Source: Amphiscolops sp. MND2022
Lineage: Eukaryota
DNA length: 64,000 bases
Assembly (NCBI GenBank): GCA_964187785.1
Contig: OZ076409.1
Span: 70,992,001-71,056,000, forward strand
Direction of reading: 5' to 3'
The notes beneath the pieces were generated by a model that saw nothing but the letters and a program-made list of their open reading frames with translations, was not told the origin of the DNA and ran no database searches. The translations under genes were made by a program, and so were the position numbers. Below are positions 570 to 35,892 of the stretch, piece by piece; position 1 is the stretch's first letter, and each line of letters starts with the position of its first letter.

Positions 570-612
570 GAGTACATTTCATCTCCCTTTCGGGGGAGAT
601 GAGAATGTACTC
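570..612 (+). other. Internal long hairpin of short units GAGTACATT.CATCTCCC...GGGAGATGAGAATGTACTC (representative)
   Basis: Imperfect inverted repeat with an ~18-bp stem, present in every complete short unit about 260 bp before the end. Confidence 0.85.
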
Positions 613-803
613 GCTAAAAACCTAATGCTATGGCGCCAATGTTTGGATGGGAAGTTTTCTATGCTTTGAAAAAATTTATTTTTAATTACTTGATTTTTTA
701 AAACAATAATTAACATGAAGTACATTACTTGCTCCTACTACTACTACCACCATACATCTCTAACGTCAACGCCCCCTGCTTGCATCAACGCCCCATCGTC
801 CGT

Positions 804-823
804 GGGCATGCCGAGGCATGCCC
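804..823 (+). other. 3' subterminal hairpin GGGCATGCC-GA-GGCATGCCC (representative; precedes all 37 junctions)
   Basis: Perfect 9-bp inverted repeat, extendable by CGTC/GACG; about 39-54 nt upstream of CTAG in the copies measured. Analogous to the Helitron 3' hairpin. Confidence 0.9.
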
Positions 824-873
824 TTCGACGACGTATGCCAATTGCCCAGTGCCACGCAGTCTTTCCCCGCTAG

Positions 874-2162
874 GTGCCGGTGTTTTTTTACACAATGGGG
901 GAAGTTGCGCGGTTGGGGAGGGTCCCTGACGCGCTTCCGTGGTATCGGGTCTTTCAACCGATGAAAACGACATAAAAAATTGGGATCTCGTAAACTAGCC
1001 ATACGATTTGGCTGAAATTTGGCACACGTACCCCCCTCGGCACGGTGAAGATGATTCCCTACTGACGTTTTGCTCGCTAAACATTTTTTGTTGACCAAAA
1101 TAACGGTTTTTGGGGTAAAATTTTCAACTTTTTTTAAATTTCATCTTATATCTCGCCACGGGTACACGCTAGCGCTTCCAAACCTTGCTGACGAAAGTTT
1201 GCAAACTGTCTCAGGAATGCTGTGTGAAATTTTCAGCTCAATCGGACCTAAACTCGAGGAGATATAGCGTTTTTCCGGAGCGGGGGGGTTTCATTTTTCT
1301 AACGGTCCAGCTTATCTTTGCCATTTTTTCGAAAATGCACTCGCCTAAAGGCCTCCCCTGGCCGGTTTTATTCCCAGCAAAACCATTTGGCCCTAAATAC
1401 GGAGTTTCAGCGTTCCAGCATTCCCGGGCGAAAAGTTGTGGGACTTAGAAAATTTCAAAAATTTTCAAAAATTTTTTTTTCCGTTATTTGGGCCCCCAAA
1501 GTGGGGGAAAAGACCCCCAAACCAGTAAAGCAAGTGAATGCATGTGCAAAGCCCTTGTTTAGAGGAGAAAAATGCCGTTTAGAACGTCTTTTTATCTTGG
1601 CTCAACGTTGACTTATGACGTTTTGAAGGTGATGTTTGGAGGTGTAAAGCACGTGAATAGTAAACGTTATGAGTATTTATCTGATCTGAAAGCCATTGAG
1701 ATGCAATATGGTTTGCTCAGAACGTAATTCATGGCAGTTTGGCAATCAATCAACACCCTTTGTTGTCGTTTGACATATTTTTTTGTTGTTATAATAAAAA
1801 ATTTTGTGTATTTATTCATTTTTTTCTCATCAAATAACTTGAAACAGTTGAGTACATTCCATCCCCCCTTCCGGGGGAGATGAGAATGTACTCGCAAAAA
1901 GCACCGAACTACGGCCCTTACCTTCCCGAGCTACGCAGTATAAGGATTACATATTGGTTCCGACATTTTCATAGAGTTATATCTTGGTAATCTGTCTGGA
2001 TATGCCGAAAAATCAGCACGTGCCTTTTAATACCAAGTTGCTCACAACAACAATTCTTTTATATCAACGCCCCCATATTTATCAACGCCCCCCGTCCGTG
2101 GGCATGCCGAGGCATGCCCTTCGACGACGTATACCAAGATATGCGTTAACGCGTTAGCCTAG
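874..2162 (+). mobile_element. Short non-autonomous unit (1289 bp), head H1 + tail T2
   Basis: Between CTAGGTG junctions; head GTGCCGGTGTTTTTTTACAC; tail contains GCAAAAAGCACCGAAC. Confidence 0.85.
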
Positions 2163-5100
2163 GTGCGGGGGGGTAACCCCTACAAAGATATTTGAGGATT
2201 CGGGTAGGGTCCTGAATCCGAGTTCAGTGCTGCCAGCTATCGTTAGGGATTTGAGAAAATTTTGCCGATCTCGTGATCTAACCGTAGGATTTTAAAGTTG
2301 GAGCGGCCCCCACCAGATTTTCCAAAGTTATTCGCCCCCCATCGGGTTCCAGCGTGATTGAAATATTTTGACGGGGTACACGGGCGACCGTTAGGGGTCA
2401 TTTTGGGGGTAAAATTTATATCCGGTCGCATAACTTTTTTCCTGTTGGTTTAAAACTTTGGGACCCTGCTAAAAGTTTCTTGACCGTGTTGCAGTGGCTC
2501 CGGAGGTCCAAACCAAATTTTTCTATCTTGAAGCTATCTCCAAGTACCCCCCCGCCCAAACCGTTATTTTTCCGGAAACGCCGGTTTTTGACCCGGAAGG
2601 AGTCGTCTGAGCGCGGGGTCGTTAGGTGATGTATTGGGGACGGCCTTGAGACGAAGCGGGGGACATGTAGTTTGCCGACCCCAGATTACCCCCCGGACGG
2701 GAAATGACCGTTATTTGAGCGGGAAAAATGCCCCCCTCCACGTTTTACCGCTATTTCCGGTGTGAAGGAGTGGGAGTAGCGCGTCGGGTGTTATATATCA
2801 AAAGTAGGTTTAGACAAGGACCTATCAGAAACATGTAGTTTTGGACCCCCTGGTCCAACCCGTTAGCAGGAAATGGGGCTTCCGCCTCCTTTTTTTACTG
2901 CTAAAACCGTAAAATGGGCATTGAGGGGTAAATATCTCGTGAACGCGTGGAGCTACAGTGTCCATCACTACTACAAGGTTTCATACCCATGATATGGTGC
3001 CTTCAGGGGGGCAAACAGATTTCCGCTATCTATCACCGTTACGGACTTGGCCCCCCAGCCTAACCGCTATGTGACCGGAAATGTCACTTTTTGAGCCCAA
3101 AGGGTCGGTCCCAGCCGGGGAACGTTAGGTAACTTATTGTAGTGCTATTTGAGACGAGTTGGGGGATATAGTTTCAGTCACCCCCCGTTACCCCTTAGGA
3201 CCGGAAATGACCGTTATGTGGGTAAAATTGCAATTTTTATACTTTTTCAAGTGTATTTAGGTGCGGAAGGAGTGGTAATAGGTGCTTGGACACTATATGA
3301 AGGAAGGGAGGACGTGAGGCGAGCATTCGAAAATAACCGTTATGTTGACCCTAAAGAACCCCTGGTACCGGAAGTGACCCGTAATGGTCAAATTTCGTGT
3401 TTTTAGGGTACAAATGTTTGGTGTTTTATGGATAACAGTACCTATTAGGTGTTTCGACGGTCTGCAATCGTGAACATAGTTATGAAACCTTGTGGGGGGT
3501 AACGGTATATAGCACCGGATGTCCAAACCGTTGGAGACAGGATAAGTTTTTTGGTTTTAAAATGTCTTTCGGCCTACTTTTGTCGACTATTATGGACTAT
3601 TTTTGGAAAATACAGGTTTTCCATATATTTGCAGAGACTCCGAAACCTCAACCAACATAACCGTTACCTGATGATAGCCTTTCAAGTTGGCCTGGTGTCA
3701 ACTTGGAAGGGCTATCCTTCAAAAATCATTAATCAAGTGTGTTTTTGAGTATGTTTGTATTACTTTAGAATCAATTAGAGCTTCAAGAAAAGTTTGCCAA
3801 CGACAAAAACTATGTCGTGATGATTCCATTATTAGAATATTAGTTAACAAAATGTTGATAAAGTTGATTTTTTACATTTCAAAAGTGTCCCAAATGCCAG
3901 AAAACCTCTTTACCAAACAAATGGTATTGATTGAATTGTATATAACAGCTAATAAAAGTTCAAATTGAATATTACGTTTCATTATGGAAGCTGAAATGTC
4001 ATATTATAGTTTAATTAACGTCAACGCCACATAGTTTACATCAACGCCCACCGTCTGTGGGCATGCCGAGGCATGCCCTTCGACGACGTATACCAAATTC
4101 CCTCAACACAACACCCCCGAGCGCGTTAGCAGCTAGGTGCGGGGGGGAAACCCCATCCCTTATCTTGGAGGATTCGGGTAGGGTCCTGAATCCGAGTTCA
4201 GTGCCGCCAGCTCTCAGTAGAAATCTGGGCATTTTTTTGCGATCTCGTGATCTAACCATAGGATTTTAAAGTTGGAGCGGCCCCCACCAGATTTTCCAAA
4301 GTTATTCGCCCCCCACCGGGTTCCAGCAAGATTGAAATATTTTGTCGGGGTACACGGGCGACCGTTAGGGGTCATTTTGGGGGTAAAATTTATATCCGGT
4401 CGCATAACTTTTTTCCTGTTGGTTTAAAACTTTGGGACCCTGCTAAAAGTTTCTTGACCATGTTGCAGGGGCCCCGGAGGTCCAAACCAAATTTTTCTAT
4501 CTTGAAGCTATCTCCAAGTACCCCCCCGCCCAAACCGTTATTTTTCCGGAAATGCCGGTTTTTGACCCGGAAGGAGTCGTCTGAGCGCGGGATCGTTAGG
4601 TGATGTTTTGGGGACGGCCTCGAGACGAAGCGGGGGATATATAGTTTGCCGACCCCAGTTTACCCCCCGGACGGGAAATGACCGTTATTTGAGCGGGAAA
4701 AATGCCCCCCTCCACGTTTTTCCGCTATTTCCGGTGTGAAGGAGTGGGAGTAGCGCTTCGGGTGCCATATATCAAAAATAAGTTTAGACAAGGACCTATC
4801 GGAAACATGTAGTTTGGGACCCCCTGGTCCAACCCGTTAGCGGGAAATGGGGCTTCCGCCTCCTTTTTTTACTGCTAAAACCGTAAAATGGGCATTGAGG
4901 GGTAAATATCTCGTGAACGCGTGGAGCAATCGTGTCCATCACTACTACAAGGTTTCATACCCATGATATGGTGCCTTCAGGGGGGCAAACAGATTTCCGC
5001 TATCTATCACCGTTACCGACTTGGCCCCCCAGCCTAACCGCTATGTGACCGGAAATGTCACTTTTTGAGCCCAAAGGGTCGGTCCCAGCCGGGGAACGTT

Positions 5101-8100
5101 AGGTAACTTATTGTAGTACTCAATGAGACGAGTTGGGGGATATAGTTTCAGTCACCCCCCGTTACCCCTTGGGACCGGAAATGACCGTTATGTGGGTAAA
5201 ATTGCAATTTTTATACTTTTTCAAGTGTATTTAGGTGCGGAAGGAGTGGTAATAGGTGCTTGGACACTATATGATGTAATGGAGGTCGTGAGGAGAGCAT
5301 TCGGAAATAACCGTTATGTTGACCCCAAAGTCCCCCTGGTACCGTTAACGACCGGAAATGGCCAAATTTTGTGTCTATTGGGTACAAATGTTTCGTATTT
5401 TATGGATAAAAGTACCTGGAAGGTGTTTTAAAGGCCTCCAGAAGTGAAAATAGTCATGAAACCTTGTGGGGGTTAACGGTATATAGCACCGGAAGTCCAA
5501 ACCGTTGGTCACAGAATAGGTTTTTTGGTTTCAAAATGTCTTTAGGCATAGTTTTGTGGGTTGAATCGTCATAATATCAACTAACACGGACTTTTTTCGG
5601 AAATAAAAATTTTTCACATTAGTTTCAGGGACCTCCAATGCTTCAGTCAACATAACCGTTACATTTTGATAGCCTTTCAAGTTGACCTGGTGTCAACTTG
5701 GAAGGGCTATCCTTCTAAAATCGTTAATCAAGAGTGTTTTTGGGTAGGTATATGTTGCATTAGTACCAATTAGAGCTTCATCAACAGTTTGCCAACGGCA
5801 AAAACGATGTCGTGATAATTCCGTTATAAAAATATTAGTTAACAAATTGTTTTCAAAGTTGATTTTTTCCATTAAAAATGTGTCCTAATGCCACCAAATT
5901 GAATAAAATAATAAATGGTATTGACTAAAACTAAACAACAATGAAAAAGAAGATCAACATTTTTATTAGGTCTCATTATGGAAGCTGAAACCTCACGTTT
6001 TAGTTTAATTAACGTCAACGCCACATACTTTACATCAACGCCCACCGTCTGTGGGCATGCCGAGGCATGCCCTTCGACGACGTATACCAAACAACCTCCA
6101 TATCTACACCCACCCGCGGTAGCAGCTAGGTGCGGGGGGGAAACCCCATCCCTTATCTTGGAGGATTCGGGTAGGGTCCTGAATCCGAGTTCAGTGCCGC
6201 CAGCTCTCAGTAGAAATCTGGGCATTTTTTTGCGATCTCGTGATCTAACCATAGGATTTTAAAGTTGGAGCGGCCCCCACCAGATTTTCCAAAGTTATTC
6301 GCCCCCCACCGGGTTCCAGCGTGATTGAAATATTTTGTCGGGGTACACGGACGACCGTTAGGGGTCATTTTGGGGGTAAAATTTATATCCGGTCGCATAA
6401 CTTTTTTCCTGTTGGATTAAAACTTTGGGACCCTGCTAAAAGTTTCTTGACCGTGTTGCGGGGGCTCCGGAGGTCCAAACCAAATTTTTCTATCTTGAAG
6501 CTATCTCCAAGTACCCCCCCGCCCAAACCGTTATTTTTCCGGAAACGCAGGTTTTTGACCCGGAAGGAGTCGTCTGAGCGCGGGGTCGTTAGGTGATGTA
6601 TTGGGGACGGCCTTGAGACGAAGCGGGGGATATTTAGTTTGCCGACCCCAGTTTACCCCCCGGACGGGAAATGACCGTTATATGAGCGGGAAAAATGCCC
6701 CCCTCCACGTTTTACCGCTATTTCCGGTGTGAAGGAGTGGGAGTAGCGCGTCGGGTGTTATATAACAAAAGTAGGTTTAGACAAGGACCTACCGGAAACA
6801 TGTAGTTTGGGACCCCCTGGACCAACCCGTTAGCGGGAAATGGGGCTTCCGCCTCCTTTTTTTACTGCTGAAACCGTAAAATGGGCATTGAGGGGTAAAT
6901 ATCTCGTGAACGCGTGGAGCAATCGTGTCCATCACTACTACAAGGTTTCATACCCATGATATGGTGCCTTCAGGGGGGCAAACAGATTTCCGCTATCTAT
7001 CACCGTTACCGACTTGGCCCCCCAGCCTAACCGCTATGTGACCGGAAATGTCACTTTTTGAGCCCAAAGGGTCGGTCCCAGCCGGGGAACGTTAGGTAAC
7101 TTATTGTAGTGCTAATTGAGACGAGTTGGGGGATATAGTTTCAGTCACCCCCCGTTACCCCTTGGGACCGGAAATGACCGTTATGTGGGTAAAATTGCAA
7201 TTTTTATACTTTTTCAAGTGTATTTAGGTGCGGAAGGAGTGGTAATAGGTGCTTGGACACCATATGATGTAATTGAGGTCGAGAGGAGAGCATTCGGAAG
7301 TAACCGTTACGTTGACCCCAAAGTCCTCCTGGTACCGTTAATGAACGTAAATGGCCAAATTTTGTGTTTATAGGGTACAAATGTTTGGTATTTTATGGAT
7401 AAAAGTACCTGGAAGGTGTTTTAAAGGCCTCCAGAAGTGAACATAGTCATGAAACCTTGTGGGGGGTAACGGTATATAGCACCGGAAGTTCAAACCGTTG
7501 GTCACAGAATAGGTTTTTTGGTTTCAAAATGTCTTTAGGCATAGTTTTGGGGGTTGAATCGTCATAATATCAACTAATACGGACTTTTTTCGGAAATAAA
7601 ATTTTTTCACATTAGTTTCAGGGACCTCCAATGCTTCAGTCAACATAACCGTTACATTTTGATAGCCTTTCAAGTTGACCTGGTGTCAACTTGGAAGGGC
7701 TATCCTTCTAAAATCGTTAATCAAGAGTGTTTTTGGGTAGGTATATGTTGCATTAGTACCAATTAGAGCTTCATCAACAGTTTGCCAACGGCAAAAACGA
7801 TGTCGTGATAATTCCGTTATAAAAAAATTAGTTAACAAATTGTTTTCAAAGTTGATTTTTTCAATGTAAAATGTGTCTTGATTCCACCAAATTGAATAAA
7901 ATAATAAATGGTATTGACTAAAACTAAATAACAATGAAAAAGAAGATCAACATTTTAATAGGTCTCGTTATGGAAGCTGAAACGTCAAATTATAGTTTAA
8001 TTAACGTCAACGCCACATACTTTACATCAACGCCCACCGTCCGTAGGCATGCCGAGGCATGCCTTTCGACGACGTATACCAAATTCCACCCACACAACAC

Positions 8101-11100
8101 CCCCGAGCGCGGTAGCAGCTAGGTGCGGGGGGGAAACCCCATCCCTTATCTTGGAGGATTCGGGTAGGGTCCTGAATCCGAGTTCAGTGCCGCCAGCTCT
8201 CAGTAGAAATCTGGGCATTTTTTTGCGATCTCGTGATCTAACCATAGGATTTTAAAGTTGGAGCGGCCCCCACCAGATTTTCCAAAGTTATTCGCCCCCC
8301 ACCGGGTTCCAGCGTGATTGAAATATTTTGACGGGGTACACGGGCGACCGTTAGGGGTCATTTTGGGGGTAAAATTTATATCCGGTCGCATAACTTTTTT
8401 CCTGTTGGATTAAAACTTTGGGACCCTGCTAAAAGTTTCTTGACCGTGTTGCGGGGGCTCCGGAGGTCCAAACCAAATTTTTCTATCTTGAAGCTATCTC
8501 CAAGTACCCCCCCGCCCAAACCGTTATTTTTCCGGAAACGCAGGTTTTTGACCCGGAAGGAGTCGTCTGAGCGCGGGGTCGTTAGGTGATGTATTGGGGA
8601 CGGCCTTGAGACGAAGCGGGGGATATATAGTTTGCCGACCCCAGTTTACCCCCCGGACGGGAAATGACCGTTATATGAGCGGGAAAAATGCCCCCCTCCA
8701 CGTTTTACCGCTATTTCCGGTGTGAAGGAGTGGGAGTAGCGCTTCGGGTGCCATATATCAAAAATAAGTTTAGACAAGGACCTATCGGAAACATGTAGTT
8801 TGGGACCCCCTGGACCAACCCGTTAGCGGGAAATGGGGCTTCCGCCTCCTTTTTTTTACTGCTAAAACCGTAAAATGGGCATTGAGGGGTAAATATCTCG
8901 TGAACGCGTGGAGCAATCGTGTCCATCACTACTACAAGGTTTCATACCCATGATATGGTGCCTTCAGGGGGGCAAACAGATTTCCGCTATCTATCACCGT
9001 TACCGACTTGGCCCCCCAGCCTAACCGCTATGTGACCGGAAATGTCACTTTTTGAGCCCAAAGGGTCGGTCCCAGCCGGGGAACGTTAGGTAACTTATTG
9101 TAGTACTCAATGAGACGAGTTGGGGGATATAGTTTCAGTCAACCCCCGTTACCCCTTGGGACCGGAAATGACCGTTATGTGGGTAAATTTGCAATTTTTA
9201 TACTCTTTGAAGTGTATTTAGGTGCGGAAGGAGTGGTAATAGGTGCTTGGACACTATATGATGTAATGGAGGTCGTGAGGAGAGCATTCGGAAATAACCG
9301 TTATGTTGACCCCAAAGTCCCCCTGGTACCGTTAACGACCGGAAACGGCCAAATTTTGTGTCTATTGGGTACAAATGTTTGGTATTTTATGGATAAAAGT
9401 ACCTGGAAGGTGTTTTAAAGGCCTCCAGAAGTGAACATAGTCATGAAACCTTGTGGGGGGTAACGGTATATAGCACCGGAAGTCCAAACCGTTGGTCACA
9501 GAATAGGTTTTTTGGTTTCAAATTGTCTTTAGGCATAGTTTTGTGGGTTGAATCGTCATAATATCAACTAATACGGACTTTTTTCGGAAATAAAATTTTT
9601 TCACATTAGTTTCAGGGACCTCCAATGCTTCAGTCAACATAACCGTTACATTTTGATAGCCTTTCAAGTTGACCTGGTGTCAACTTGGAAGGGCTATCCT
9701 TCTAAAATCGTTAATCAAGAGTGTTTTTGGGTAGGTATATGTTGCATTAGTACCAATTAGAGCTTCATCAACAGTTTGCCAACGGCAAAAACGATGTCGT
9801 GATAATTCCGTTATAAAAATATTAGTTAACAAATTGTTTTCAAAGTTGATTTTTTCCATTAAAAATGTGTCCTAATGCCACCAAATTGAATAAAATAATA
9901 AATGGTATTGACTAAAACTAAATAACAATGAAAAAGAAGATCAACATTTTTATTAGGTCTCATTATGGAAGCTGAAACCTCACGTTTTAGTTTAATTAAC
10001 GTCAACGCCACATACTTTACATCAACGCCCACCGTCTGTGGGCATGCCGAGGCATGCCCTTCGACGACGTATACCAAACAACCTCCATATCTACACCCAC
10101 CCGCGGTAGCAGCTAGGTGCGGGGGGGTAACCCCAACAAATATATTGGAGGATTCGGGTAGGGTCCTGAATCCGATTTTAACTCTAATAGCTATCGATAG
10201 GAAATCTTGCAAAAATTTCGGGATCTCGTGATCTAACCATAGGATTTTAAAGTTGGAGCGGCCCCCACCAGATTTTCCGAAAATTAGCGCCCCCCACCGG
10301 GTTCCAGCGTGATTGAACTATTTTGACGGGGTACACGGGCGACCGTTAGGGGTCATTTTGGGGGTAAAATTTATATCCGGTCGCATAACTTTTTTTCTGT
10401 TGATTTAAAACTTTGGAACCCTGCTAAAAGTTTCTTGACCGTGTTGCAGGGGCCCCGAAGGTCCAAACCAAATTTTTCTATCTTGAAGCTATCTCCAAGT
10501 ACCCCCCCGCTCAAACCGTTATTTTTCCGGAAACGCAGGTTTTTGACCCGGAAGGAGTCGTCTGAGCGCGGGGTCGTTAGGTGATGTATTGGGGACGGCC
10601 TTGAGACGAAGTGGGGGACAAGTAGTTTGCCAAACTCAATTTACCCCCCGGACGGGAAATGACCGTTATATGAGCGTGTAAAATGCCCCCCTCCACGTTT
10701 TACCGCTATTTCCGGTGTGAAGGAGTGGGAGTAGCGCGTCGGGTGTTATATAACAAAAGTAGGTTTAGACAAGGACCTATCGGAAACATGTAGTTTGGGA
10801 CCCCCTGGACCAACCCGTTAGCGGGAAATGGGGCTTCCGCCTCCTTTTTTTAGTGCTAAAACCGTAAAATGGGCATTGAGGGGTAAATATCTCGTGAACG
10901 CGTGGAGCAATCGTGTCCATCACTACTACAAGGTTTCATACCCATGATATGGTGCCTTCAGGGGGGCAAACAGATTTCCGCTATCTATCACCGTTACCGA
11001 CTTGGCCCCCCAGCCTAACCGCTATGTGACCGGAAATGTCACTTTTTGAGCCCAAAGGGTCGGTCCCAGCCGGGGAACGTCAGGTAACTTATTGTAGTAC

Positions 11101-12087: not shown

Positions 12088-13358
12088 GTGCCGGGATTTT
12101 CTATTCGACAAGTTTGCGCGCCTTGGGGAGGGTCCCTTTGCGCGCTTTAAGATCCAGGTGTTTCCAACTCCTAAACGGGCATGTGATTTCGACGATCTCC
12201 TAAACTAGCCATACGATTTGGCTGAAATTTGGCACACGTACCCCCCTCGGCACGGTGAAGATGATTCCCTACTGACGTTTTTCCCGCTAAACATTTTTTG
12301 TTGACCAAAATAACGGTTTTTGGGGTAAATTTTTGAACTTTTTTTAAATTTCATCTTATATCTCGCCACGAGTACACGCTAGCGCTTCCAAACCTTGCTG
12401 ACGAAAGTTTGCAAACTGTCTCAGGAATGCTGTGTGAAATTTTCAGCTCAATCGGACTTAAACTCGAGGAGATATAGCGTTTTTCCGGAGCGGGGGGGTT
12501 TCATTTTTCTAACGGTCCAGCTTATCTTTGCCATTTTTTCGAAAATGCACTCGCCTAAAGGCCTCCCCTGGCCGGTTTTATTCCCAACAAAACCATTTGG
12601 CCCTAAATACGGAGTTTCAGCGTTCCAGCATTCCCGGGCGAAAAGTTGTGGGACTTAGAAAAGTTCAAAAATTTTCAAAAAAAATTTTTTCCGTTATTTG
12701 GGCCCTCAAAGTGGGGGAAAAGACCACCCAACCAGGAAAGCAAGTGAATGCATGTGGAAAGCCCTTGTTTAGACGAGAAAAATGCCGTTTAGAACGTCTT
12801 TTTATCTTAACTTGACATTGACTTTTGTCGTTTTGAAGGTGACCGTTAGATACGGAAAATTGATGTTTTGAGTATTTATCCCATCTGAAAGCCATTGAGA
12901 TACAACATGTTTTGCTCAAAACGTGTTTCATTGCAGTTTCGCTGTCCATTATCACCCTTTGGTGTCTTTTCACGTAATTTTCGTTTCTATAATAACAATT
13001 TTTTTGTGTATTTATTCATTTTTTTCTCATCAAATAACTTGAAACAGTTGAGTACATTCCATCTCCCTTCCCGGGGGAGATGAGAATGTACTCGCTAAAG
13101 GTCAGGAACTACGGACTATATCTTCCACAACACAAAAGGGATTGCAAATGGTTTCAGTTTGTCGCAGAAAACTTCTTTTTGCCCTCTGTGACTCGACAAA
13201 ATGAACGTTTCTTACTTACTTTGAAACTCAGCATACCACAACTCATCTCTAACGTCAGCGCCCCCCTACTTGCATCAACGCCCACCGTCCGTGGGCATGC
13301 CGAGGCATGCCCTTCGACGACGTATACCAAGATATACCTGGAGCGCGGTAGCCGCTAG
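12088..13358 (+). mobile_element. Short non-autonomous unit (1271 bp), head H3 + tail T3
   Basis: Head GTGCCGGGATTTTCTATTCG; tail GCTAAAGGTCAGGAAC...GAGCGCGGTAGCCGCTAG. Confidence 0.85.
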
Positions 13359-15903
13359 GTGGCCGGAAATTTTTTTTTTCATCAAAATCTTTGCCATTGG
13401 GGGAGGGGCCCCGGATGGCCAGTAGTACGGGATAGCTTCCTACCAAATCCAGGCGGAAAAAACGTGATTTTGGAAACTAGCCGTCAGAATTTGCTCAAAT
13501 TTTGCATACGGCTTCCTATAACAATCCTAAGAACTAATCCCTACTGGCATTTTGCCCGAAAAACGCAAAAAGTTGGTCAAAATCTTAGTTTTTTGGTCAA
13601 AAAATGGCGTTTTTTCGAAAAATTTTTTTTTCAGAGACAATTACTCGGAACTGGTTCACCTAGCGCAAAAACGCCTAGCTGATTTATTGTTGGGCACTTC
13701 ATGAGGAGTGTGTATACAAATTTTCGTCCAAATCGGATGAAAGTTGATTGAGAAATAACTGAAAATTTGAGGCATTTTTTTGGAAATTTTTGAAATCCCA
13801 GTCTATCTCTGCCGTTTTTTGCCCAGATTTTTTTCCAGACACTCTCCTAAAGACCTCCCCTGGCCGGTTTACCTCCCAGCAAAACCATTTGGCCCTAAAT
13901 ACGGAGTTTCAGCATTCCAGCAAACCCCGGGTAAAAAATAAATGACTTAGAAATTTTTCGAAAATTTTTCAAAATTTTTTTTTTCAAATTCAGGCCTCCT
14001 AAAGTCAAGAAACTTCCACACAACTAGGATTGCAAGTGATAGCATGTGGAAAGTGCTTGAATAGACGAGAAAAATGAGCTATTATACGACTCTGTAGCTT
14101 AACCTGACGTTGACTTATGATAGTTTTAGTGTGAACTTCGTATGTGCTGAAAAAATCAAAGAAACCTAAAAGTCTTTTAAAAGTAATCAGAATACGTCCA
14201 ATGAACCACAGAGCTGTTAAATTGCCGTTGTGCAGTGGAGCAACACCATTTAGAGTGTTTTGACCCATTTTGATAAGTTTTGATACCGTCTTGTTCATCT
14301 GATAGCACAAAACAGTTGAGTACATTCCATCTCCCCCCTTGTGGGGGAGATGAGAATGTACTCGCTAAAAGTCAGGTACTATAGCACCCATTTTGTTTTA
14401 TTCGACGCTAGTGATGCTATTGCACACGAATACAATAGTTTTGTCAAATAATGTTTAAGATGATGAATCTTACTATACCTTTAGTGTACGTTAACCTACT
14501 ACTACAACATCGCATCCGTAACGTCAACGCCACATACTCGCATCAACGCCCACCGTCCGTGGGCATGCCGAGGCATGCCCTTCGACGACGTATGCCAAAT
14601 AGCGCCACAGGGCGCAAACTTGTCCGCTAGGTGGCCGGAAATTTTTTTTTTTTCAGCAAAATCTTTGCCATTGGGGGAGGGGCCCCGGATGGCCAGTAGT
14701 ACGGGATAGCTTCCTACCAAATCCAGGCGGAAAAAACGTGATTTTGGAAACTAGCCGTCAGAATTTGCTCAAATTTTGCATACGGCTTCCTATAACAATC
14801 CTAAGAACTAATCCCTACTGGCATTTTGCCCAAAAAACGCAAAAAGTTGGTCAAAATCTTAGTTTTTTGGTCAAAAAATGGCGTTTTTTCGAAAAAATTT
14901 TTTTTCAGAGACAATTACTCGTAACTGGTTCACCCAGCGCAAAAACGCCTAGCTGATTTATTGTTGGGCACTTCATGAATGGTGCGTATACAAATTTTCG
15001 TCCAAATCGGATAAAAGTTGATTGAGAAATAATTGAAAATTTGAGGCATTTTTTTGGAAATTTTTGAAATCCCAGTCTATCTCTGCCGTTTTTTGCCCAG
15101 ATTTTTTTCCAGACACTCTCCTAAAGACCTCCCCTGGCCGGTTTACCTCCCAGCAAAACCATTTGCCCCTAAATACGAAGTTTCAGCGTTCTAGCATTCC
15201 CGGGCGAAAAGTTGTGGGACTTAGAATAAATTTTTCGAAACGCAAAATGTGTAAAGTCAACTTCAGGCCTCCCAAAGTCAAGGAACTTCCACACAACTAG
15301 GATTGCAAGTGGATGCATGTGGAAAGTGCTTGAATAGACGAGAAACATTAGCTATTATACGACTCTGTAGCTAAACCTGACGTTGACTTATGATAATTTT
15401 AGTGTGAGCTTCGTATGTGCTTAAAAAATCAGAAAAACCTAAAAGTCTTTTTAAGGTAATCAGGATACGACCAATCAACCCCGGAGCTGTTATATTGCCG
15501 TTGTGTAGTAGAACAACACCATTTAGAGTGTTTTGACCCATTTTGACAAGTTTTGATACAGTCTTGTTCATCCAATAGCACAAAACAGTTGAGTACATTC
15601 CGTCTCCCCCCTTGTGGGGGAGATGAGAATGTACTCGCTAAAAGTCAGGTACTATAGCGCCCATTTTGTTTTTTTTTCGACGCTAGTGATGCCATTGCAC
15701 ACGAATACAATAGTTTTGTCGAATCATGTTTGACATGATGAATCTTACTTTACCTTTAGTTTACGTTTACTTTACTACTACATCGCAGCCCTAACGTCAA
15801 CGCCACATACTCGCATCAACGCCCACCGTCCGTGGGCATGCCGAGGCATGCCCTTCGACGACGTATGCCAAATAGCGCCACAGGGCGCAAACATTCCCGC
15901 TAG
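13359..15903 (+). mobile_element. Two short units (1272, 1273 bp), head H4 + tail T4
   Basis: Head GTGGCCGGAAATTTT; internal junction CTAG at 14627-14630. Confidence 0.85.
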
Positions 15904-18900
15904 GTGGCCGTGTCTTTTCGACGTGCTTTTGCATTGAGGAGTGGGTAGGGCCCCGCGACGACCTAGAAGAATTGGATGCTCACCGAAACGTGCAGAATTC
16001 TACGAGATCTCATAGTTTGAGCCATACGATTTTTCTGAAATTTGGCATGTGGCCTGGAATTGGTGAGTAGGTAAAACGTGTAGGAGGTGATTTTTCCCAA
16101 ATTCCACTGTGAGACGAGATATGGGCAAATAACGGTCCCAAAAATGGCAAAAATCCACTTTTTTCAACTTTGTCAGCCCATATCTCGTTCCCAGGTGCCC
16201 GGAGCGGGACGCGTTAAGCTGATTATAAACTCTAGGGTGTTGAGGCTGTACGGAGAAGTCAGGCCCGTTCCGATCGGACTTGTAGTCTTGGAGAAATAAC
16301 GGTATTTTTGGGGAACCTTTTCTAACGGTCCAGCTTATCTTTGCCATTTTTTCGAAAATGTACTCGCCTAAAGGCCTCCCCCTGGCCGAATTTACTCCCA
16401 GCAAAACCATTTGGCCCTAAATACGGAGTTTCAGCGTTCCAGCATTCCCGGGCGAAAAGTTGTGGGACTTGGAAAATTTTCAAAAATTTTCAAAAAATTT
16501 TTTTTTCGTTTTCCGGGCCCCCAATGAAGGGGAAACGACCCCCCAACCAGTAATTTGAGTGAATTCATGTCAAAAGCCCTTGTTTTGACGAGAAAAATAC
16601 CGTTTAGAACATCTTTTTATCTTGACTCAACGTTGACTTATGACGTTTTGAATGTGATGTAAGGATGTAGGAGGCATGTGAAAAGTTGATGTTTTGAGTC
16701 TTTATCTCATTTGAAAGCGGTTGAGATGCAAGCTGTCCTGCTCAAAACGTCTTTCGTTGTAATTTTCCAGTGCACCAATACCCTTTGGTGTCATATAATT
16801 ATACTTTTCGTCGATATATTAACAATTTTAATGTTTTTATTCCAATTTTTATTATCTTATAACTCAAAACAGTTGAGTACATTTCATCTCCCTTTCGGGG
16901 GAGATGAGAATGTACTCGCTAAAGACCTAGCGCCATGACCAAAAGTTTGAAACCCGCGTTTTTTATCTTCTTACAGACTTGTTTTTGTATTTTTTCAGAA
17001 TTTTTTAAAAATTAATATACTTGAAATACATTACTTGACTTTACTACTACATTCCACCTCCAACGTCAACGCCCCCCTGCTTGCATCAACGCCCACCGTC
17101 CGTGGGCATGCCGAGGCATGCCCTTCGACGACGTATGCCAAATGCCCAGTGCCACGCAGTCATTATCGCTAGGTGGCCGTGTCTTTTCGACGTGCTTTTG
17201 CATTGAGGAGTGGGTAGGGCCCCGCGACGACCTAGAAGAATTGGATGCTCACCGAAACGTGCAGAATTCTACGAGATCTCATAGTTTGAGCCATACGATT
17301 TTTCTGAAATTTGGCATGTGGCCTGGAATTGGTGAGTAGGTAAAACGTGTAGAAGGTAATTTTTCCCAAATTCCACTGTGAGAGGAGATATGGGCAAATA
17401 ACGGACCCAAAAATGGCAAAAATGCACATTTTTCAACTTTGTCAGCCAATATCTCTTTCCCAGGTGCCCGTAGCGTTCCGCACGTGGACATCAATATTGC
17501 TCAGCGCTGTTGGAGGAGTGCGTGGACAAATTTTGGTTTAAATCGGACTTAAACTTGACGAGAAATTAACGGTTTTTTGGGCGTTTCCGGGGTAAATTTT
17601 TTAACGGTCCAGCTTATCTTTGCCATTTTTTCGAAAATGTACATGCCTAAAGGCCTCCCCCTGGCCGAATTTACTCCCAGCAAACCCATTTGGCCCTAAA
17701 TACGGAGTTTCAGCGTTCCAGCATTCCGGGGCGGAAAGTTGTGGGACTTGGAAAAATTTCAAAATTTTTTCAAAAATTTTTTTTCCCGTTTTCCGGGCCC
17801 CCAATGAAGGGGAACGACCCCCCAACCAGTATTTTGAGTGAATTCATGTGGAACGCCCATGTTTGGAGGAGAAAAATGCCGTTTAGCACATCTTTTTATC
17901 TTAACTTGACATTGACTTATGACGTTTTGAATGTGATGTTAGGATATATGAAGCATGTTAAAAGTTGAAGTTTTGAGTCTTTATCTCATCGGAAAACCAT
18001 TGAGATACAAGCAGTTTTGCTAAAAACGATTTTCATTGTAGGTTAGCAGAGTATTAGTACACTTTGATGTCATTTGAGTATTTTTTCTTCTATATAATAA
18101 CTGTTTTTATGTATTTATTCCAATTTATCTCATCTTTTAACATCAAGCAGTTGAGTACATTTCATCTCCCTTTCGGGGGAGATGAGAATGTACTCGCTAA
18201 AAACCTAATGCTATGGCGCCAATGTTTGGATGGGAAGTTTTCTATGCTTTGAAAAAAGTTATTTTTAATTACTTGATTTTTTAAAACAATAATTAACATG
18301 AAGTACATTACTTGCTCCTACTACTACCACCATACATCTCTAACGTCAACGCCCCCTGCTTGCATCAACGCCCCATCGTCCGTGGGCATGCCGAGGCATG
18401 CCCTTCGACGACGTATGCCAAATGCCCAGTGCCACGCAGTCTTTCCCCGCTAGGTGGCCGTGTCTTTTCGACGTGCTTTTGCATTGAGGAGTGGGTAGGG
18501 CCCCGCGACGACCTAGAAGAATTGGATGCTCACCGAAACGTGCAGAATTCTACGAGATCTCATAGTTTGAGCCATACGATTTTGCTGAAATTTGGCATGT
18601 GGCCTGGAATTGGTGAGTAGGTAAAACGTGTAGGAGGTGATTTTTCCCAAATTCCACTGTGAGACGAGATATGGGCAAATAACGGTCCCAAAAATGGCAA
18701 AAATGCACTTTTTTCAACTTTGTCAGCCCATATCTCGTTCCCAGGTGCCCGGAGCGGGACGCGTTAAGCTGATTATAAACTCTAGGGTGTTGAGGCTGTA
18801 CGGGGAAGTCAGGCCCGTTCCGATCGGACCTGTAGTCTTGGAGAAATAACGGTATTTTTGGGGAACCTTTTCTAACGGTCCAGCTTATCTTTGCCATTTT

Positions 18901-21006
18901 TTCGAAAATGTACTCGCCTAAAGGCCTCCCCCTGGCCGAATTTACTCCCAGCAAAACCATTTGGCCCTAAATACGGAGTTTCAGCGTTCCAGCATTCCCG
19001 GGCGAAAAGTTGTGGGACTTGGAAAATTTTCAAAAATTTTCAAAAATTTTTTTTTTCGTTTTCCGGGCCCCCAATGAAGGGGAAACGACCCCCCAACCAG
19101 TATTTTGAGTGAATTCATGTGGAAAGCCCTTGTTTTGACGAGAAAAATACCGTTTAGAACATCTTTTTATCTTGACTCAACGTTGACTTATGACGTTTTG
19201 AATGTGATGTAAGGATGTAGGAGGCATGTGATAAGTTGATGTTTTGAGCCTTATCTCATATGAAAGCGGTTGAGATGCAAGCTGTCCTGCTCAAAACGTC
19301 TTTCGTTGTAATTTTGCAGTGCAACAATACCCTTTGGTGTCATATAAACATACTTTTTGTCGATATATTAACAATTTTAATGTATTTATTCCAATTTTTA
19401 TTATCTTATAACTCAAAACAGTTGAGTACATTTCATCTCCCTTTCGGGGGAGATGAGAATGTACTCGCTAAAGACCTAGCGCCATGACCAAAAGTTTGAA
19501 ACCCACGTTTTTTATCTTCTTACAGACTTGTTTTTGTATTTTTTCGGAATTTTTTAAAAATTAATATACTTGAAATACATTACTTGACTTTACTACTACA
19601 ACCCACCTCCAACGACAACGCCCCCCTGCTTGCATCAACGCCCACCGTCCGTGGGCATGCCGAGGCATGCCCTTCGACGACGTATGCCAAATGCCCAGTG
19701 CCACGCAGTCATTATCGCTAGGTGGCCGTGTCTTTTCGACGTGCTTTTGCATTGAGGAGTGGGTAGGGCCCCGCGACGACCTAGAAGAATTGGATGCTCA
19801 CCGAAACGTGCAGAATTCTACGAGATCTCATAGTTTGAGCCATACGATTTTTCTGAAATTTGGCATGTGGCCTGGAATTGGTGAGTAGGTAAAACGTGTA
19901 GAAGGTAATTTTTCCCAAATTCCACTGTGAGAGGAGATATGGGCAAATAACGGACCCAAAAATGGCAAAAATGCACATTTTTCAACTTTGTCAGCCAATA
20001 TCTCTTTTCCAGGTGCCCGTAGCGTTCCGCACGTGGACATCAATATTGCTCAGCGCTGTTGGAGGAGTGCGTGGACAAATTTTGGTTTAAATCGGACTTA
20101 AACGTGACGAGAAATTAACGGTTTTTTGGGCGTTTCCGGGGTAAATTTTTTAACGGTCCAGCTTATCTTTGCCATTTTTTCGAAAATGTACATGCCTAAA
20201 GGCCTCCCCCTGGCCGAATTTACTCCCAGCAAACCCATTTGGCCCTAAATACGGAGTTTCAGCGTTCCAGCATTCCGGGGCGGAAAGTTGTGGGACTTGG
20301 AAAAATTTCAAAATTTTTTCAAAAATTTTTTTTCCCGTTTTCCGGGCCCCCAATGAAGGGGAACGACCCCCCAACCAGTATTTTGAGTGAATTCATGTGG
20401 AACGCCCATGTTTGGAGGAGAAAAATGCCGTTTAGAACATCTTTTTATCTTAACTTGACATTGACTTATGACGTTTTGAATGTGATGTTAGGATATATGA
20501 AGCATGTTAAAAGTTGAAGTTTTGAGTCTTTATCTCATCGGAAAACCATTGAGATACAAGCAGTTTTGCTAAAAACGATTTTCATTGTAGGTTAGCAGAG
20601 TATTAGTACACTTTGATGTCATTTGAGTATTTTTTTCTTCTATATAATAACTGTTTTTATGTATTTATTCCAATTTATCTCATCTTTTAACATCAAGCAG
20701 TTGAGTACATTTCATCTCCCTTTCGGGGGATATGAGAATGTACTCGCTAAAAACCTAATGCTATGGCGCCAATGTTTGGATGGGAAGTTTTCTATGCTTT
20801 GAAAAAAGTTATTTTTAATTACTTGATTTTTTAAAACAATAATTAACATGAAGTACATTACTTGCTCCTACTACTACTACCACCATACATCTCTAACGTC
20901 AACGCCCCCTGCTTGCATCAACGCCCCATCGTCCGTGGGCATGCCGAGGCATGCCCTTCGACGACGTATGCCAAATGCCCAGTGCCACGCAGTCTTTTCC
21001 CGCTAG
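15904..21006 (+). mobile_element. Four short units with head H5 and alternating tails T5/T1 (1269, 1281, 1268, 1285 bp); ~2.55-kb higher-order dimer x2
   Basis: Head GTGGCCGTGTCTTTTCGACG; junction CTAGs end at 17172, 18453, 19721, 21006. Confidence 0.85.
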
Positions 21007-24000
21007 GTGCCGGGATTTTCTATTCGACAAGTTTGCGCGCCTTGGGGAGGGTCCCTTTGCGCGCTTTAAGATCCAGGTGTTTCCAACTCCTAAACGGGCA
21101 TGTGATTTCGACGATCTCCTAAACTAGCCATACGATTTGGCTGAAATTTGGCACACGTACCCCCCTCGGCACGGTGAAGATGATTCCCTACAGACGTTTT
21201 TCCCGCTAAACATTTTTTGTTGACCAAAATAACGGTTTTTGGGGTAAAATTTTCAACTTTTTTTAAATTTCATCTTATATCTCGCCACGGGTACACGCTA
21301 GCGCTTCAAAACCTTGCTGACGAAAGCTTGCAAACTGTCTCAGGAATGCGGTGTGAAATTTTCAGCTCAATCAGACTTGAACTCAGGGAGATATAGCGTT
21401 TTTCCGGAGCGGGGGGGTTTCATTTTTCTAACGGTCCAGCTTATCTTTGCCATTTTTTCGAAAATGTACTCGCCTAAAGGCCTCCCCTGGCCAAATTTAC
21501 TCCCAGCAAAACCATTTGGCCCTAAATACGGAGTTTCAGCGTTCCAGCATTCCCGGGCGAAAAGTTGTGGGACTTAGAAAAATTTCAAAATTTTTCAAAT
21601 TTTTTTTTCCGTTTTCCGCCCTCCCCCCCGAGGGGAAAGACCAACCAACCAGTAATTTGAGTGAATGCGTGTGGAAAGCCCTTGTTTAGAGGAGAAAAAT
21701 GCCGTTTAGAACGTCTTTTTATCTTGGGTCAACGTTGACTTATGACGTTTTGAAGGTGATGTTTGGAGGTGTGAAGCACGTGAAAAGTAAACGTTATGAG
21801 TATTTATCTGATCTGAAAGCCATTGAGATGCAACCTGTTTTGCTCAAAACGTAATTCATTGCAGTTTGGCAATCAATCAACACCCTTTGTTGTCGTTTGA
21901 CATACTTTTTTGTTGTTATAATAAAAAATTTTGTGTATTTTTTCATTTTTTTCTCATCAAATAACTTGAAACAGTTGAGTACATTCCATCCCCCCTTCCG
22001 GGGGAGATGAGAATGTACTCGCAAAAAGCACCGAACTACGGCCCTTACCTTCCCGAGCTACGCAGTATAAGGATTACATATTGGTTCCGACATTTTCATA
22101 GAGTTATATCTTGGTAATCTGTCTGGATTTGCCGAAAAATCAGCACGTGCCTTTTAATACCAAGTTGCTCACAACGACAATTCTTTTATATCAACGCCCC
22201 CATATTTATCAACGCCCCCCGTCCGTGGGCATGCCGAGGCATGCCCTTCGACGACCCGCACCAAAATATGCGTTAGCGCGGTAGCGGCTAGGTGCCGGGA
22301 TTTCTATTCGATAAAGTATGTGGCGCGTGTGGGTAGGGTCCCTGGCGCGCTCTTGGGTATGGTGTTCACCAGCTAGGAAATAGGGGTCGATTTTTCGGGA
22401 TCTCCTAAACTAGCCACACGATTTGGCTGAAATTTGGCACACGTACCCCCCTCGGCACGGTGAAGATGATTTCCTACTGACGTTTTTCCCGCAAAATTTT
22501 TTTTGTTGTCCAAAATAACGGTTTTTGGGGTAAAATTTTGAATTTTTTTTAAATTTTATCTTATATCTCGCCACCGGTTCACGCTAGCGCTTCAAAACCC
22601 TGCTAAAGAAAGCTTGCAAACTGTCTCAGGAATGCGGTGTGAAATTTTCAGCTCAATCGGACTTGAACTCGGGGAGATATAGCGTTTTTCCGGAGCGGGG
22701 GGGTTTCATTTTTCTAACGGTCCAGCTTATCTTTGCCATTTTTTCGAAAATGCACTCGCCTAAAGGCCTCCCCTGGCCGGTTTTATTCCCAGCAAAACCA
22801 TTTGGCCCTAAATACGGAGTTTCAGCGTTCCAGCATTCCCGGGCGAAAAGTTGTGGGACTTAGAAAAGTTCAAAAATTTTCAAAATTTTTTTTTCTGTTT
22901 TCCGCCCTCCCCCCCTAGGGGAAAAGACCCCCCAACCAGTAATTTGAATGAATTCATGTGGAAAGGCCTTGTTTAGAGGAGAAAAATGCCGTTTAGAACG
23001 TCTTTTTATCTTGGCTCAACGTTGACTTATGACGTTTTGAAAGTGATGTTTGGAGGTTTAAAGCACGTGAATAGTAAACGTTATGAGTATTTATCTGATC
23101 TGAAAGCCATTGAGATGAATATGGTTTGCTCAAAACGTAATTCATGGTAGTTTGGCAATCAATCAACACCCTTTGTTGTCGTTTGACATACTTTTTTGTT
23201 GTTATAATAAAAAAATTTTGTGTATTTATTCATTTTTTCTCATCAAATAACTTGAAACAGTTGAGTACATTCCATCCCCCCCTTCCGGGGGAGATGAGAA
23301 TGTACTCGCAAAAAGCACCGAACTACGGCCCTTACCTTCCCGAGCTACGCAGTATAAGGATTACATATTGGTTCCGACATTTTCATAGAGTTAAATCTTG
23401 GTAATCTGTCTGGATATGCCGAAAAATCAGCACGTGCCTTTTAATACCAAGTTGCTCACAACGACAATTATTTTATATCAACGCCCCCATATTTATCAAC
23501 GCCCCCCGTCCGTGGGCATGCCGAGGCATGCCCTTCGACGACGTATACCAAGATATGCGTTAACGCGTTAGCCTAGGTGGCCGTGTCTTTTCGACGTGCT
23601 TTTGCATTGAGGAGTGGGTAGGGCCCCGCGACGACCTAGAAGAATTGGATGCTCACCGAAACGTGCAGAATTCTACGAGATCTCATAGTTTGAGCCATAC
23701 GATTTTTCTGAAATTTGGCATGTGGCCTGGAATTGGTGAGTAGGTAAAACGTGTAGGAGGTGATTTTTCCCAAATTCCACTGTGAGACGAGATATGGGCA
23801 AATAACGGTCCCAAAAATGGCAAAAATGCACTTTTTTCAACTTTGTCAGCCCATATCTCGTTCCCAGGTGCCCGGAGCGGGACGCGTTAAGCTGATTATA
23901 AACTCTAGGGTGTTGAGGCTGTACGGTGAACTTGGGCCCGTTCCGATCGGACTTGTAGTCTTGGAGAAATAACGGTATTTTTGGGGAACCTTTTCTAACG

Positions 24001-34411: not shown

Positions 34412-34480
34412 TTCATTTGGGTTTACAAATATTACACTGTAGAAGTCTCTGAGAATGGACGATAGATGAAGCATGTGAGG

Positions 34481-34511
34481 TTGCCCCGGCCACGCAGTGA
34501 GCCGAGGGCAA
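34481..34511 (+). other. GC-rich hairpin downstream of the RepHel stop codon
   Basis: TTGCCC-CGGC-CAC-gca-GTG-a-GCCG-a-GGGCAA in an AT-rich context. Confidence 0.7.
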
Positions 34512-34970
34512 GCTTTATTCAAACTATAGATGAACATCCTTTTTTGTTGAAAAGTTCTTTGATTATACTTTGCCTTTGCTCATTTTTTCAACGTTCCTTT
34601 GTAAATATATACTGATAAAATTGTCACCCGTTGATAATATTACCAGTTGACACTGAAGTTGACACCAGTCAAGAAAAAAAATAATTATCTGACTGGAACA
34701 AAAAAAGACAAAAAAACAAGATGGCAAGATTGTTGAAACAGTTCAATTCTTCAACTTCGATAATCTTTTCCTTAACATATTTTTACCATCACGTGGAGGG
34801 AAATAGAAAAACATTTCTACAGTTAATTAGTTCGAAAGAGAAAAATTAGACAGTATTTAGACGCAGTAGTGATGTTGTACATCGAAAGAAATGAAAATGT
34901 GTCGAGAAACATAACTTTATTGTGTTTTTAGATAGCTTTGTCTTCAATCGAGACTGAAACAAGATTCAAA

Positions 34971-35892
34971 ATGCCCATCATTAATAAAGATTTGTCGGCA
35001 GATGAGGCAGCCACCAGAACAATCAGTAAATTAACAACGTGTGAACTCGATGAAGTGATGGAATCTAATGCAACGGATCGGAAGTACATGATTTGTACAT
35101 TGCTTTACGCCAAAAAATGTGTGAAATCAGTATCGTATTTTAAACTAACGAATGGACAAAAGCAAAAACAGGAGGCTACATTTAACCGTTTTGTCCTTCT
35201 GGGAGTGATCGGAAAAGAGAAAGTAATGGCAATATTTACCTACACCCAACTAGAAAGCGCGGAGTTGTTGCGTTACTGTTCTGCATTACAACCAGGAAAT
35301 GCGTGCGCCTTAATACGCCCTAAATTCGATAACAAGTATATGGGATCATCATCCACTACCCCAATCATACTAACTTCTGAGCCACTTGTGCCTCTGAACA
35401 TCAAGAATTACCCTGATGTCAGCTGTCCAAGAATTGTATCATCACCGGACTTTCAACATTTCTACATGAAAACGAAAGATTTGAAGCTCGATAATATAGA
35501 TGCCATTGGAAACGTGTGCAATGGGACCTTCTGCGATGGTCAACCGAAGGGCGACTGTCCTTGTTTAGAGGTCGACAACCGGAAAAGCAGCTGGATCATT
35601 ACTGCGGATGTGAAATGCAGTGGATTGTATCACTCATCAAAAATACGATCAAAACGATTGATAACGGTATTCGCTCCCAAATGTAAGTCGGCGGACCCTA
35701 ACAAAAGAGAATTTGATGTCCTTGATTTGGGCGATTGTATTGAAAACTGTGTTGAAGCAGTAAATGCCAAGAATGGATGGGAAATTTTCGGTTGGGTGAA
35801 ACCAAACGAATCTGCTCTAGAGTTTACAAACTATGAATGCGACCTACACATTATACATCTTCAACCTATCGAAATTACAGATGTAGAGTCAG
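34971..35892 (+). CDS. Second element gene, exon 1 (possible RPA-like OB-fold/zinc ssDNA-binding protein)
   Basis: Lies in ORF 34938-35948; first ATG at 34971 (caaaATG). Cys cluster CNGTFC-x7-CPC in a beta-rich sequence. Phase-1 donor G|GTAAAC at 35892/35893, after which the sequence becomes AT-rich and intron-like. Product assignment is inference only. Confidence 0.65.

Follow-up and report, generated by a model that had tools for sequence, protein, structure and literature searches.

Helitron-like elements of the HLE1 type, such as Helraiser and Xuan-Feng, encode a RepHel transposase with a Y2 HUH domain and a Pif1 helicase, have no terminal inverted repeat, and carry CTRG near the 3′ end with a hairpin upstream of it (PMC4778049, PMC5876387, PMC13286980). 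Helraiser transposes its top strand, forms precise circles in which the tail is joined to the head, cuts that junction again, and cannot dispense with its left end (PMC4778049, PMC5876387). In the available portions of the reports on Helraiser and Xuan-Feng, the hairpin that is dissected is the one at the right end, and an internal left-end hairpin is not described. For elements of the HLE2 type (Helitron2, Helentron, DINE-1, and FoHeli), a hairpin at the 5′ end is known, and FoHeli3–5 start with TGCCT and have a degenerate 5′ hairpin (PMC5148889, PMC4067079). Within HLE2, GIY-YIG has been reported in one moss family, and UCH in subgroups c and d as separate ORFs (PMC11417382).

Hairpins are general at the ends of elements mobilized by HUH enzymes (PMC10288648). 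The TnpA of IS608 binds an imperfect hairpin as a structure, 19 nt downstream of the left cut and 10 nt upstream of the right cut, and guide bases at the foot of the hairpin pair with the cut site (PMC3201880). A third clade of Helitrons in Paramecium has divergent RepHel proteins outside HLE1 and HLE2 that are encoded by large single ORFs (PMC13085455). Tandem arrays derived from Helitrons have been found in plants, Xenopus, and Hydractinia and are ascribed to rolling-circle replication (PMC12001565, PMC11934779).

Organization of the Array and Its Transposase

The window, which is the whole stretch of 64,000 nt that was analyzed, is one head-to-tail array of Helitron-like units with 37 junctions of the sequence CT(A/G)GGTG between positions 870 and 63362, and neither end of the array falls within it. 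The tail motif GGCATGCCGAGGCATGCC was found in 37 copies in the window, each of which is then followed by CT(A/G)GGTG(C/G). Units were delimited by cutting the junctions between CTRGG and TG, and the 36 whole units were determined to be 27 of 1.27–1.29 kb, 8 of 1.97–1.99 kb, and one of 12,049 nt. The transposase ORF is absent from the 35 short units, and in the autonomous unit it starts 2.58 kb downstream. The units all follow one another head to tail and have the same orientation as the RepHel ORF. The family labels A, B, P, C, and D were assigned in this analysis; H5 and "helper" (the autonomous unit) are taken from an earlier note on this DNA. The coordinates of the features are collected in Table 1.

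Table 1. Features of the array and their positions in the window
Feature	Position	Strand	Remarks
Long internal tail hairpin (hairpin A)	570–612	+	~235–250 nt upstream of the tail hairpin; in the 1.27–1.29 kb units and L001
Conserved right-end-like tail block	786–839	+	Contains hairpin GGGCATGCC-GA-GGCATGCCC (804–823); upstream of 37/37 junctions
Tail-to-head junction core, C(T/G)(A/G)GGTG	870–876	+	Putative nick and join site; bond ambiguous within 7 nt
Candidate proximal mini-hairpin, GTGT/ACAC	880–893	+	Tentative; GGGG/CCCC, GAAA/TTTC, GTC/GAC in other families
Unit 1 head hairpin (A type), GCGCG/CGCGC	907–934	+	3 × 3 internal loop, apical GGG/CCC, loop GAGGGT
Unit 1 arms, GCGCG and CGCGC	907–911, 930–934	+	
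Apex, GGG-KAGGGN-CCY	915–926	+	37/37 heads and L001
Second head box, GATCTCGTAAACTAGCCATACGATTT	984–1009	+	63–70 nt after the apex; 37/37 heads and L001
C-family head hairpin, GGATTC/GAATCC	2196–2219	+	Contiguous with the apex (one G·T); closed by GA..GA
B-type head hairpin, GCGCGC/GCGCGC	12116–12145	+	Same lineage as A and helper
D-family head hairpin, GCCAT/ATGGC	13393–13419	+	
H5 head	15936–15961	+	Apex plus T·G, G-C, tandem A·G/G·A, G-C, A·G/G·A; in register with the L001 stem
Autonomous unit ("helper"), 12,049 nt	24847–36895	+	Same junctions as the short units at both bounds
Autonomous-unit head hairpin	24877–24904	+	
RepHel, 2327 aa	27428–34411	+	HUH H1107/H1109, Y1278/Y1282; Pif1 Walker A 1733–1739

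Elements of the HLE1 type have CTRR at the 3′ end and insert between A and T. At the junction the tail ends here in CTAG in 36 of the 37 cases and in CTGG in the other, and one more G may belong to the end. A relative recovered from metagenome contigs (L001, described below) has CGAG at this position. All 37 heads and L001 start with TG(C/G) after CNRGG, and the 5′-TC of HLE1 was not found within the 7-nt junction core of any of them. A family-specific hairpin was looked for in the last 43 nt of the tails and was found at P < 0.05 in 1 of 20 distinct tails. Conservation is concentrated in the tail, which carries a hairpin and CTRG, diversity is greater in the head, and the ORF is read toward the tail; this is the usual polarity of Helitrons (PMC11417382).

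The minimum shared across the units is four blocks, namely the tail hairpin, the junction, the head hairpin, and the second head box. The 2-kb C family and the autonomous unit have in common the last 83 nt, as determined by BLAST, and the head blocks, as determined by alignment. The longest exact inverted match between head and tail was 5–8 nt in 36 of 36 units, which is the same as for random pairs, and the 5′ hairpin lies outside any inverted repeat. Hairpin A is absent from the C and autonomous units and is present in L001 at ~566–606. The C family has an unrelated long internal hairpin instead, at ~5668–5712.

Several further features were observed. A 40-nt block starting with ACCATTTGGCCCTAAATACG (1383–1423; ~25363–25403 in the autonomous unit and ~136–176 in L001) is kept in A, H5, D, the autonomous unit, and L001, against a background identity of ~70%. 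At 984–1024 the sequence GATCTC...GATTT..TGAAATTTGG has a roughly inverted partner, AAATTTTCAGCTCAATCGG...GAGATAT, at ~1225–1268, and this pair may resemble the conserved core of DINE-1-like elements. The short repeats ATTATCATAGG and AGT(A/G)GGTAACCT (25729/26651, 26059/26781) lie upstream of the RepHel ORF and are possible promoter or intron features. A second ORF of the autonomous unit (34938–35948, + strand, 336 aa) has no Pfam match and is possibly an exon of an accessory gene. There were no Rfam matches in the window at gathering scores, and a sigma-70 scan of the autonomous head region gave results at chance level and is not suited to a eukaryote.

In the transposase, a Y2 HUH Rep domain is fused upstream of a Pif1 helicase, the arrangement that identifies a Helitron-like element (RepHel). 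The Pfam matches to PF14214 (Helitron_like_N) and PF05970 (PIF1) scored 33.8 and 35.1 bits, respectively, both above the cutoff. Among 30 sequences, H1107, H1109, and Y1278 are invariant, and Y1282 is present in at least 90%. The Walker A motif is likewise conserved in the relatives. The model of the Rep region has a pLDDT of 79.7, and its only PDB match is Helraiser (7lcc; E = 2.7e-8, 16% identity). As a single sequence RepHel gave no match to Helraiser at E = 0.01, but the family profile does match. Using residues 800–1990 as the query, 333 cluster representatives were found at E = 1e-30 or better, and the relatives that carry an organism name are from Perkinsus olseni only, an alveolate like Paramecium. 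Close relatives of RepHel have 65–94% identity to it and distant ones 25–41%. Of the 18 relatives scanned, 10 have a Pfam match to GIY-YIG, and Slx1 structures are among the matches of the family profile (E = 1.8e-13). The C-terminal GIY-YIG-like region of the RepHel from the window (~34040–34300) differs from the family consensus at several positions of the motif, and for this reason no role at the hairpin is assigned to it. Residues 88–790 (27689–29797) were modeled with a pLDDT of 82 and have in part a fold like that of a USP deubiquitinase (E = 8e-5). Conserved Cys/His clusters flank this USP-like region. No Pfam match to DUF6570/APE was found in the window protein (E = 0.001) or in the 18 relatives (E = 0.01).

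The elements in the window are Helitron-like but lack defining end features of both HLE1 and HLE2. They share with HLE1 the Y2 HUH and Pif1 domains of RepHel, the absence of a terminal inverted repeat, and a tail-to-head junction of the same form as the circle junction, and the CTRG of the window tails, with its upstream hairpin, may correspond to that of HLE1. They differ from HLE1 in that the heads start with TG (or GTG) rather than TC, the tail of L001 ends in CGAGG, and the tail hairpin ends ~40–55 nt before the junction, compared with 10–15 nt for the 16–20 nt hairpin of HLE1. The presence of a 5′ hairpin may be a likeness to HLE2. However, the HLE2 hairpin, as far as it is described, sits at the very end of the element and overlaps an asymmetric inverted repeat of 11–18 nt, whereas here it starts 28–36 nt inside the head, no head–tail repeat exceeds 8 nt (36 units), and DUF6570/APE was not matched in 19 proteins.

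The likeness to IS608 is one of geometry only, with top-strand HUH chemistry and an imperfect palindrome downstream of the putative left cut, and the IS608 enzyme differs in being a Y1 dimer without a helicase. A guide of the IS608 type was sought at the foot of the hairpin and was not found, since the junction stays the same although the bases at the foot differ from one lineage to the next. With the third clade of Paramecium the elements share a divergent RepHel in a large single ORF, oriented and apparently targeted insertion, and end stem-loops with compensatory changes; the Paramecium elements differ in their telomeric-repeat targets, CCAA ends, ORFs of 9–10 kb, and right-end stem-loop, and GIY-YIG is absent from the main text of that report (PMC13085455). 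The arrays described from plants, Xenopus, and Hydractinia are concatemers or minisatellites, whereas at least four families alternate here at a 7-nt junction. In a search covering part of the literature, which does not establish absence from print, no report was found of a left-end hairpin that lies internally and has a fixed tip, or of a mixed-family junction array.

The Hairpin in the Heads

The motif GGGKAGGGNCC occurs 37 times in the 64 kb, always on the + strand and once per head, where shuffled sequences are expected to contain 0.14 copies. The earlier note had described this motif as a conserved loop. The tip is indeed fixed in sequence, but it is partly stem, with GGG paired to CC(C/T) in a 3-bp stem that leaves a true loop of 6 nt. 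The offset of 39–41 nt from the cut between CTRGG and TG that had been proposed applies to 33 of the 37 heads, with 37 nt in three and 43 nt in one; a range of 37–43 nt includes all 38 heads when L001 is counted. Identity between five lineages is 84% for the 12-nt core, 38% and 33% for the two 10-nt arms, and 31% and 26% for the wider flanks. The heads are not otherwise dissimilar, as had been thought, but homologous, and all 37 share with L001 the second box GAT(C/T)T..A(G/A/T)CC. A covariance model built from 15 heads gave 38 matches at E < 1e-4, all of them heads. It found no copy inside the units or on the minus strand, and six matches at E = 0.8–4.9 were taken as chance.

Every arm quoted in the earlier note was found in its place. 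An outer stem of 5–6 bp is present in 29 of the 37 heads (17 of the GCGCG group, 8 of C, and 4 of D). With the core fixed and the arms shuffled, the P values for stem length ranged from 5e-5 to 0.023 in six of seven heads, H5 being the other. When arms were swapped, 5–7 bp were formed within the GCGCG group (A, B, and helper) and 1–4 bp between lineages, compared with 5–6 bp for a head's own arms. Because the GCGCG, helper, and GCGCGC arms cross-pair, they are one lineage and were counted once, and the five family-specific stems of the earlier note come down to three lineages. The independent stems in the window are thus three, plus one failure (H5), and L001 adds a fourth. The stems of C and L001 end in the same A·G/G·A tandem. 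The proximal mini-hairpin was not significant, with P values from 0.04 to 1.0 over seven heads.

The folding of 43-nt pieces was compared with that of 200 dinucleotide shuffles of each. The z values for A, helper, C, B, D, L001, and H5 were determined to be −3.1, −2.5, −3.0, −2.9, −1.7, −3.2, and +1.0, respectively, and the DNA MFE of unit 1 (900–942) was −11.1. The expectation that the start of the head folds better than shuffled controls therefore holds locally and outside H5; over the first 75 nt of 24 distinct heads the effect is much weaker (z from +0.8 to −2.5). The top strand folds better than the bottom strand in six of six lineages, by a margin of only 0.2–2.1 kcal/mol for some heads, and the B head has no top-strand preference in the 75-nt folding. 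The G·T wobbles are located on the top strand.

Covariation was measured in 15 heads, which are L001 and 14 of the 37 window heads picked to cover the variants. In this set, from which the structure itself was derived and in which relatedness inflates the counts (the effective sample is about four independent stems), 77% of the cells pair and 19 cells change on both sides, and neither value was reached in 500 shuffles. Controls with slid partners gave 36–62% paired cells. One stem pair holds in all 15 heads as either C-G or G-C, and two apical pairs are invariant. Two of the five measures of covariation did not beat the shuffles (230/500 and 460/500).

L001 was the single match when metagenome contigs were scanned by the tail hairpin pattern alone, so that its head was not selected for. 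It spans the junction GCGAGG/TGC, is ~70–75% identical to the window units over internal blocks, and is sister to C and H5. Its core lies 38 nt downstream of the junction and is identical to that of C at 12 of 12 positions, and the 40 nt to the right of the core are 15% identical. In place of GGATTC/GAATCC of the C family, L001 has the stem GGCGC/GCGCC, which differs by two compensated pairs and one pair deleted from both arms. The hairpin of L001 folds better than 200 of 200 shuffles. No relatives were found in the viral contigs scanned, and of 18 candidate stretches in prokaryote genomes one was confirmed (L002), which is a fragment of the ORF, 2.5 kb long, and has no ends. This fragment (3–2510) is 34% identical to RepHel and lies on a contig of 2.5 kb in the metagenome-assembled genome of a bacterium, where it is most simply explained as eukaryotic contamination.

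H5 accounts for 8 of the 37 heads. A weaker stem had been placed at 15941–15956; the position was found, but a Watson–Crick outer stem is absent (P = 0.80, z = +1.0), and outer Watson–Crick pairing amounts to only 2 bp. The arms of H5 match those of L001 in 8 of 10 and 7 of 10 bases and are the same motif rather than a different one. Tandem G·A pairs can be stable in DNA, and the register that contains them in H5 is not favored by the energy model (−0.9 vs −2.1 kcal/mol). H5 is the most homogeneous family, with 98.1–99.8% identity within each of two subtypes, and units U16 and U28 are 99.8% identical at a distance of 26 kb and with different neighbors. H5 heads follow non-H5 tails in five of eight cases. 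Since H5 heads have been joined without the canonical outer stem, a perfect lower stem is not required. We infer that the lower stem is helpful rather than indispensable, and that H5 works with its 5-bp tip and G·A-rich arms. The proposal of a structural signal downstream of the junction is supported by the conserved apex, the covarying arms, L001, and the top-strand folding, except that H5 has no canonical stem.

Assembly of the Array and Role of the Hairpin

The two members of a neighboring pair differ in deep family in 14 of 36 cases. Neighbors of the same family were found in 22 of 36 pairs, compared with 10.7 expected, and this excess indicates that local duplication also shapes the array. 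The maximum identity between neighbors is 0.968 and none are identical, while distant units reach 0.998, as expected for the placement of single units. A pure concatemer origin is ruled out by the absence of identical neighbors. In the same-family runs at 2164–10117 and 15905–21007 the subtypes alternate in the order ABAB, which hints at duplication of dimers; in the H5 run the identity is 0.85 to the next neighbor and 0.98–0.99 to the next but one.

Copy-painting of the 37 junction regions is noisy upstream of −100 through misalignment, and its results were therefore taken only from the head and the vicinity of the junction. By hand count, 20 switch intervals overlap CTRGGTG and 3 are at the hairpin, and the narrowest interval is exactly the 7 nt of CTRGGTG. 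The exchange of unrelated tails and heads within 7 shared nt points to joins made by an enzyme over homologous recombination or plain concatemers. The mixed families of the array and its near-identical distant units suggest the self-targeted insertion of single units. In a geminivirus origin, the nick is made within the loop of a hairpin. A nick of this kind was considered for the loop of the head hairpin, where K-AGG resembles K-AGG of the junction, and was rejected. None of the 37 junctions joins a tail to the loop, the T/G of the loop does not covary with the T/G of the junction, and the painted crossovers (3 there against 20 over the junction core) contradict it as well.

The earlier note had proposed a bipartite site that spans the junction. 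It can reasonably be inferred that the site extends across the junction, because the order of units changes at CTRGGTG, both sides carry conserved blocks, and the spacing is nearly fixed; it consists, however, of at least four conserved blocks and not two. We give an even chance to the reading that the hairpin acts on the top strand within a left-end origin read by RepHel and that each tail-to-head junction is both an origin and a target. Counting against this reading, precise cleavage of a single strand of Helraiser in vitro needs no more than 40 terminal nt (PMC4778049). The tip of the hairpin is fixed in sequence and its lower stem is fixed in pairing. In the mechanism that we envisage, the top strand would be opened and RepHel would bind the hairpin, recognizing the sequence of its tip and the shape of its stem. 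Binding would then license or position the HUH nick in CTRGGTG, as with the TnpA of IS608. The tail-to-head junction would reproduce the joined ends of a circular intermediate and could thereby serve as origin and target, and circles of any family with the shared blocks would join existing junctions to give a mixed array.

It is rather unlikely that only the 12-nt core matters, as a box bound in duplex form by RepHel or a host zinc-finger protein, in an origin with separate nicking and binding sites, and with the arms kept complementary mechanically by template switching during rolling-circle copying, a process that repairs quasi-palindromes, rather than through selection on folding. Such a box would account for the invariance of the core, where covariation is expected of a purely structural element, and for the spread of H5 without a stem. 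Helraiser needs double-stranded donors (PMC5876387), and rolling-circle origins typically nick and bind at separate sites (PMC5714925, PMC10288648). However, the internal loops and G·T wobbles of the stems persist and have not been perfected, the distance from the junction ranges over 6 nt, which is more than half a helical turn, and the noncanonical cells at three consensus pairs are all of the G·A type. It is improbable that the hairpin acts in RNA or belongs to a promoter at the 5′ end of the element. The top strand folds as RNA with −14.5 to −18.9 kcal/mol in five of six lineages (−9.2 kcal/mol for H5), and G·U wobbles would fit equally well, but the position of the hairpin tracks the DNA junction, and it is found in 35 short units without a transposase ORF and far upstream of the ORF in the autonomous unit.

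The location of the hairpin on the displaced top strand would also suit a priming signal for second-strand synthesis, similar to a single-strand origin and read by host replication proteins, and lagging-strand synthesis on the peeled strand has been proposed for Helraiser (PMC5876387). We regard this as very doubtful, because a priming signal could sit anywhere on the circle, yet the hairpin is held at nearly the same distance from the junction in 38 of 38 heads. A little more doubtful still is an element that runs opposite to its ORF, with the hairpin as a bottom-strand terminator ~30 nt before the 3′ end. Reversed ORFs occur in Paramecium clade B (PMC13085455) and in FoHeli4/5 (PMC5148889), and the right-end stem-loops of Paramecium show compensatory changes (PMC13085455), but the conserved tail and diverse head have the usual polarity (PMC11417382) and the top strand is the better folded one in every lineage. 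There is very little probability that the hairpin is a neutral relic of common ancestry, homogenized by gene conversion in the array. The heads are homologous and three painted crossovers fall in the core; nevertheless, the core of L001 is fully identical to that of C next to 40 nt that are not, and matched changes in the two arms are not created by conversion.

Implications for Helitron Biology

The array bears on how the left end of a Helitron is recognized by its transposase and on why some Helitrons pile up in arrays. The natural variants in this array form a mutational series, with four compensated stems, one G·A-rich stem, and a fixed 12-nt tip. They adjoin an intact-looking transposase, so that left-end recognition and self-targeting can be tested with short oligonucleotides. 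We tentatively suggest, as a possibility short of a probability, that the elements belong to a widespread and undescribed self-targeting lineage in which USP-like, Y2 Rep, Pif1, and Slx1-like GIY-YIG regions are encoded by one ORF. Its members would land on their own joined ends by means of the tail hairpin, the 7-nt junction, and the head hairpin, with the tip recognized by sequence and the stem by shape, and would build integron-like arrays to which non-autonomous families are added unit by unit. If self-targeting is true, RepHel would be a eukaryotic integrase that acts site-specifically on single strands, and its target, at ~250 nt, would be compact and portable. If the junctions are true targets, this would be a site-specific integrase for large cargo that is native to eukaryotes.
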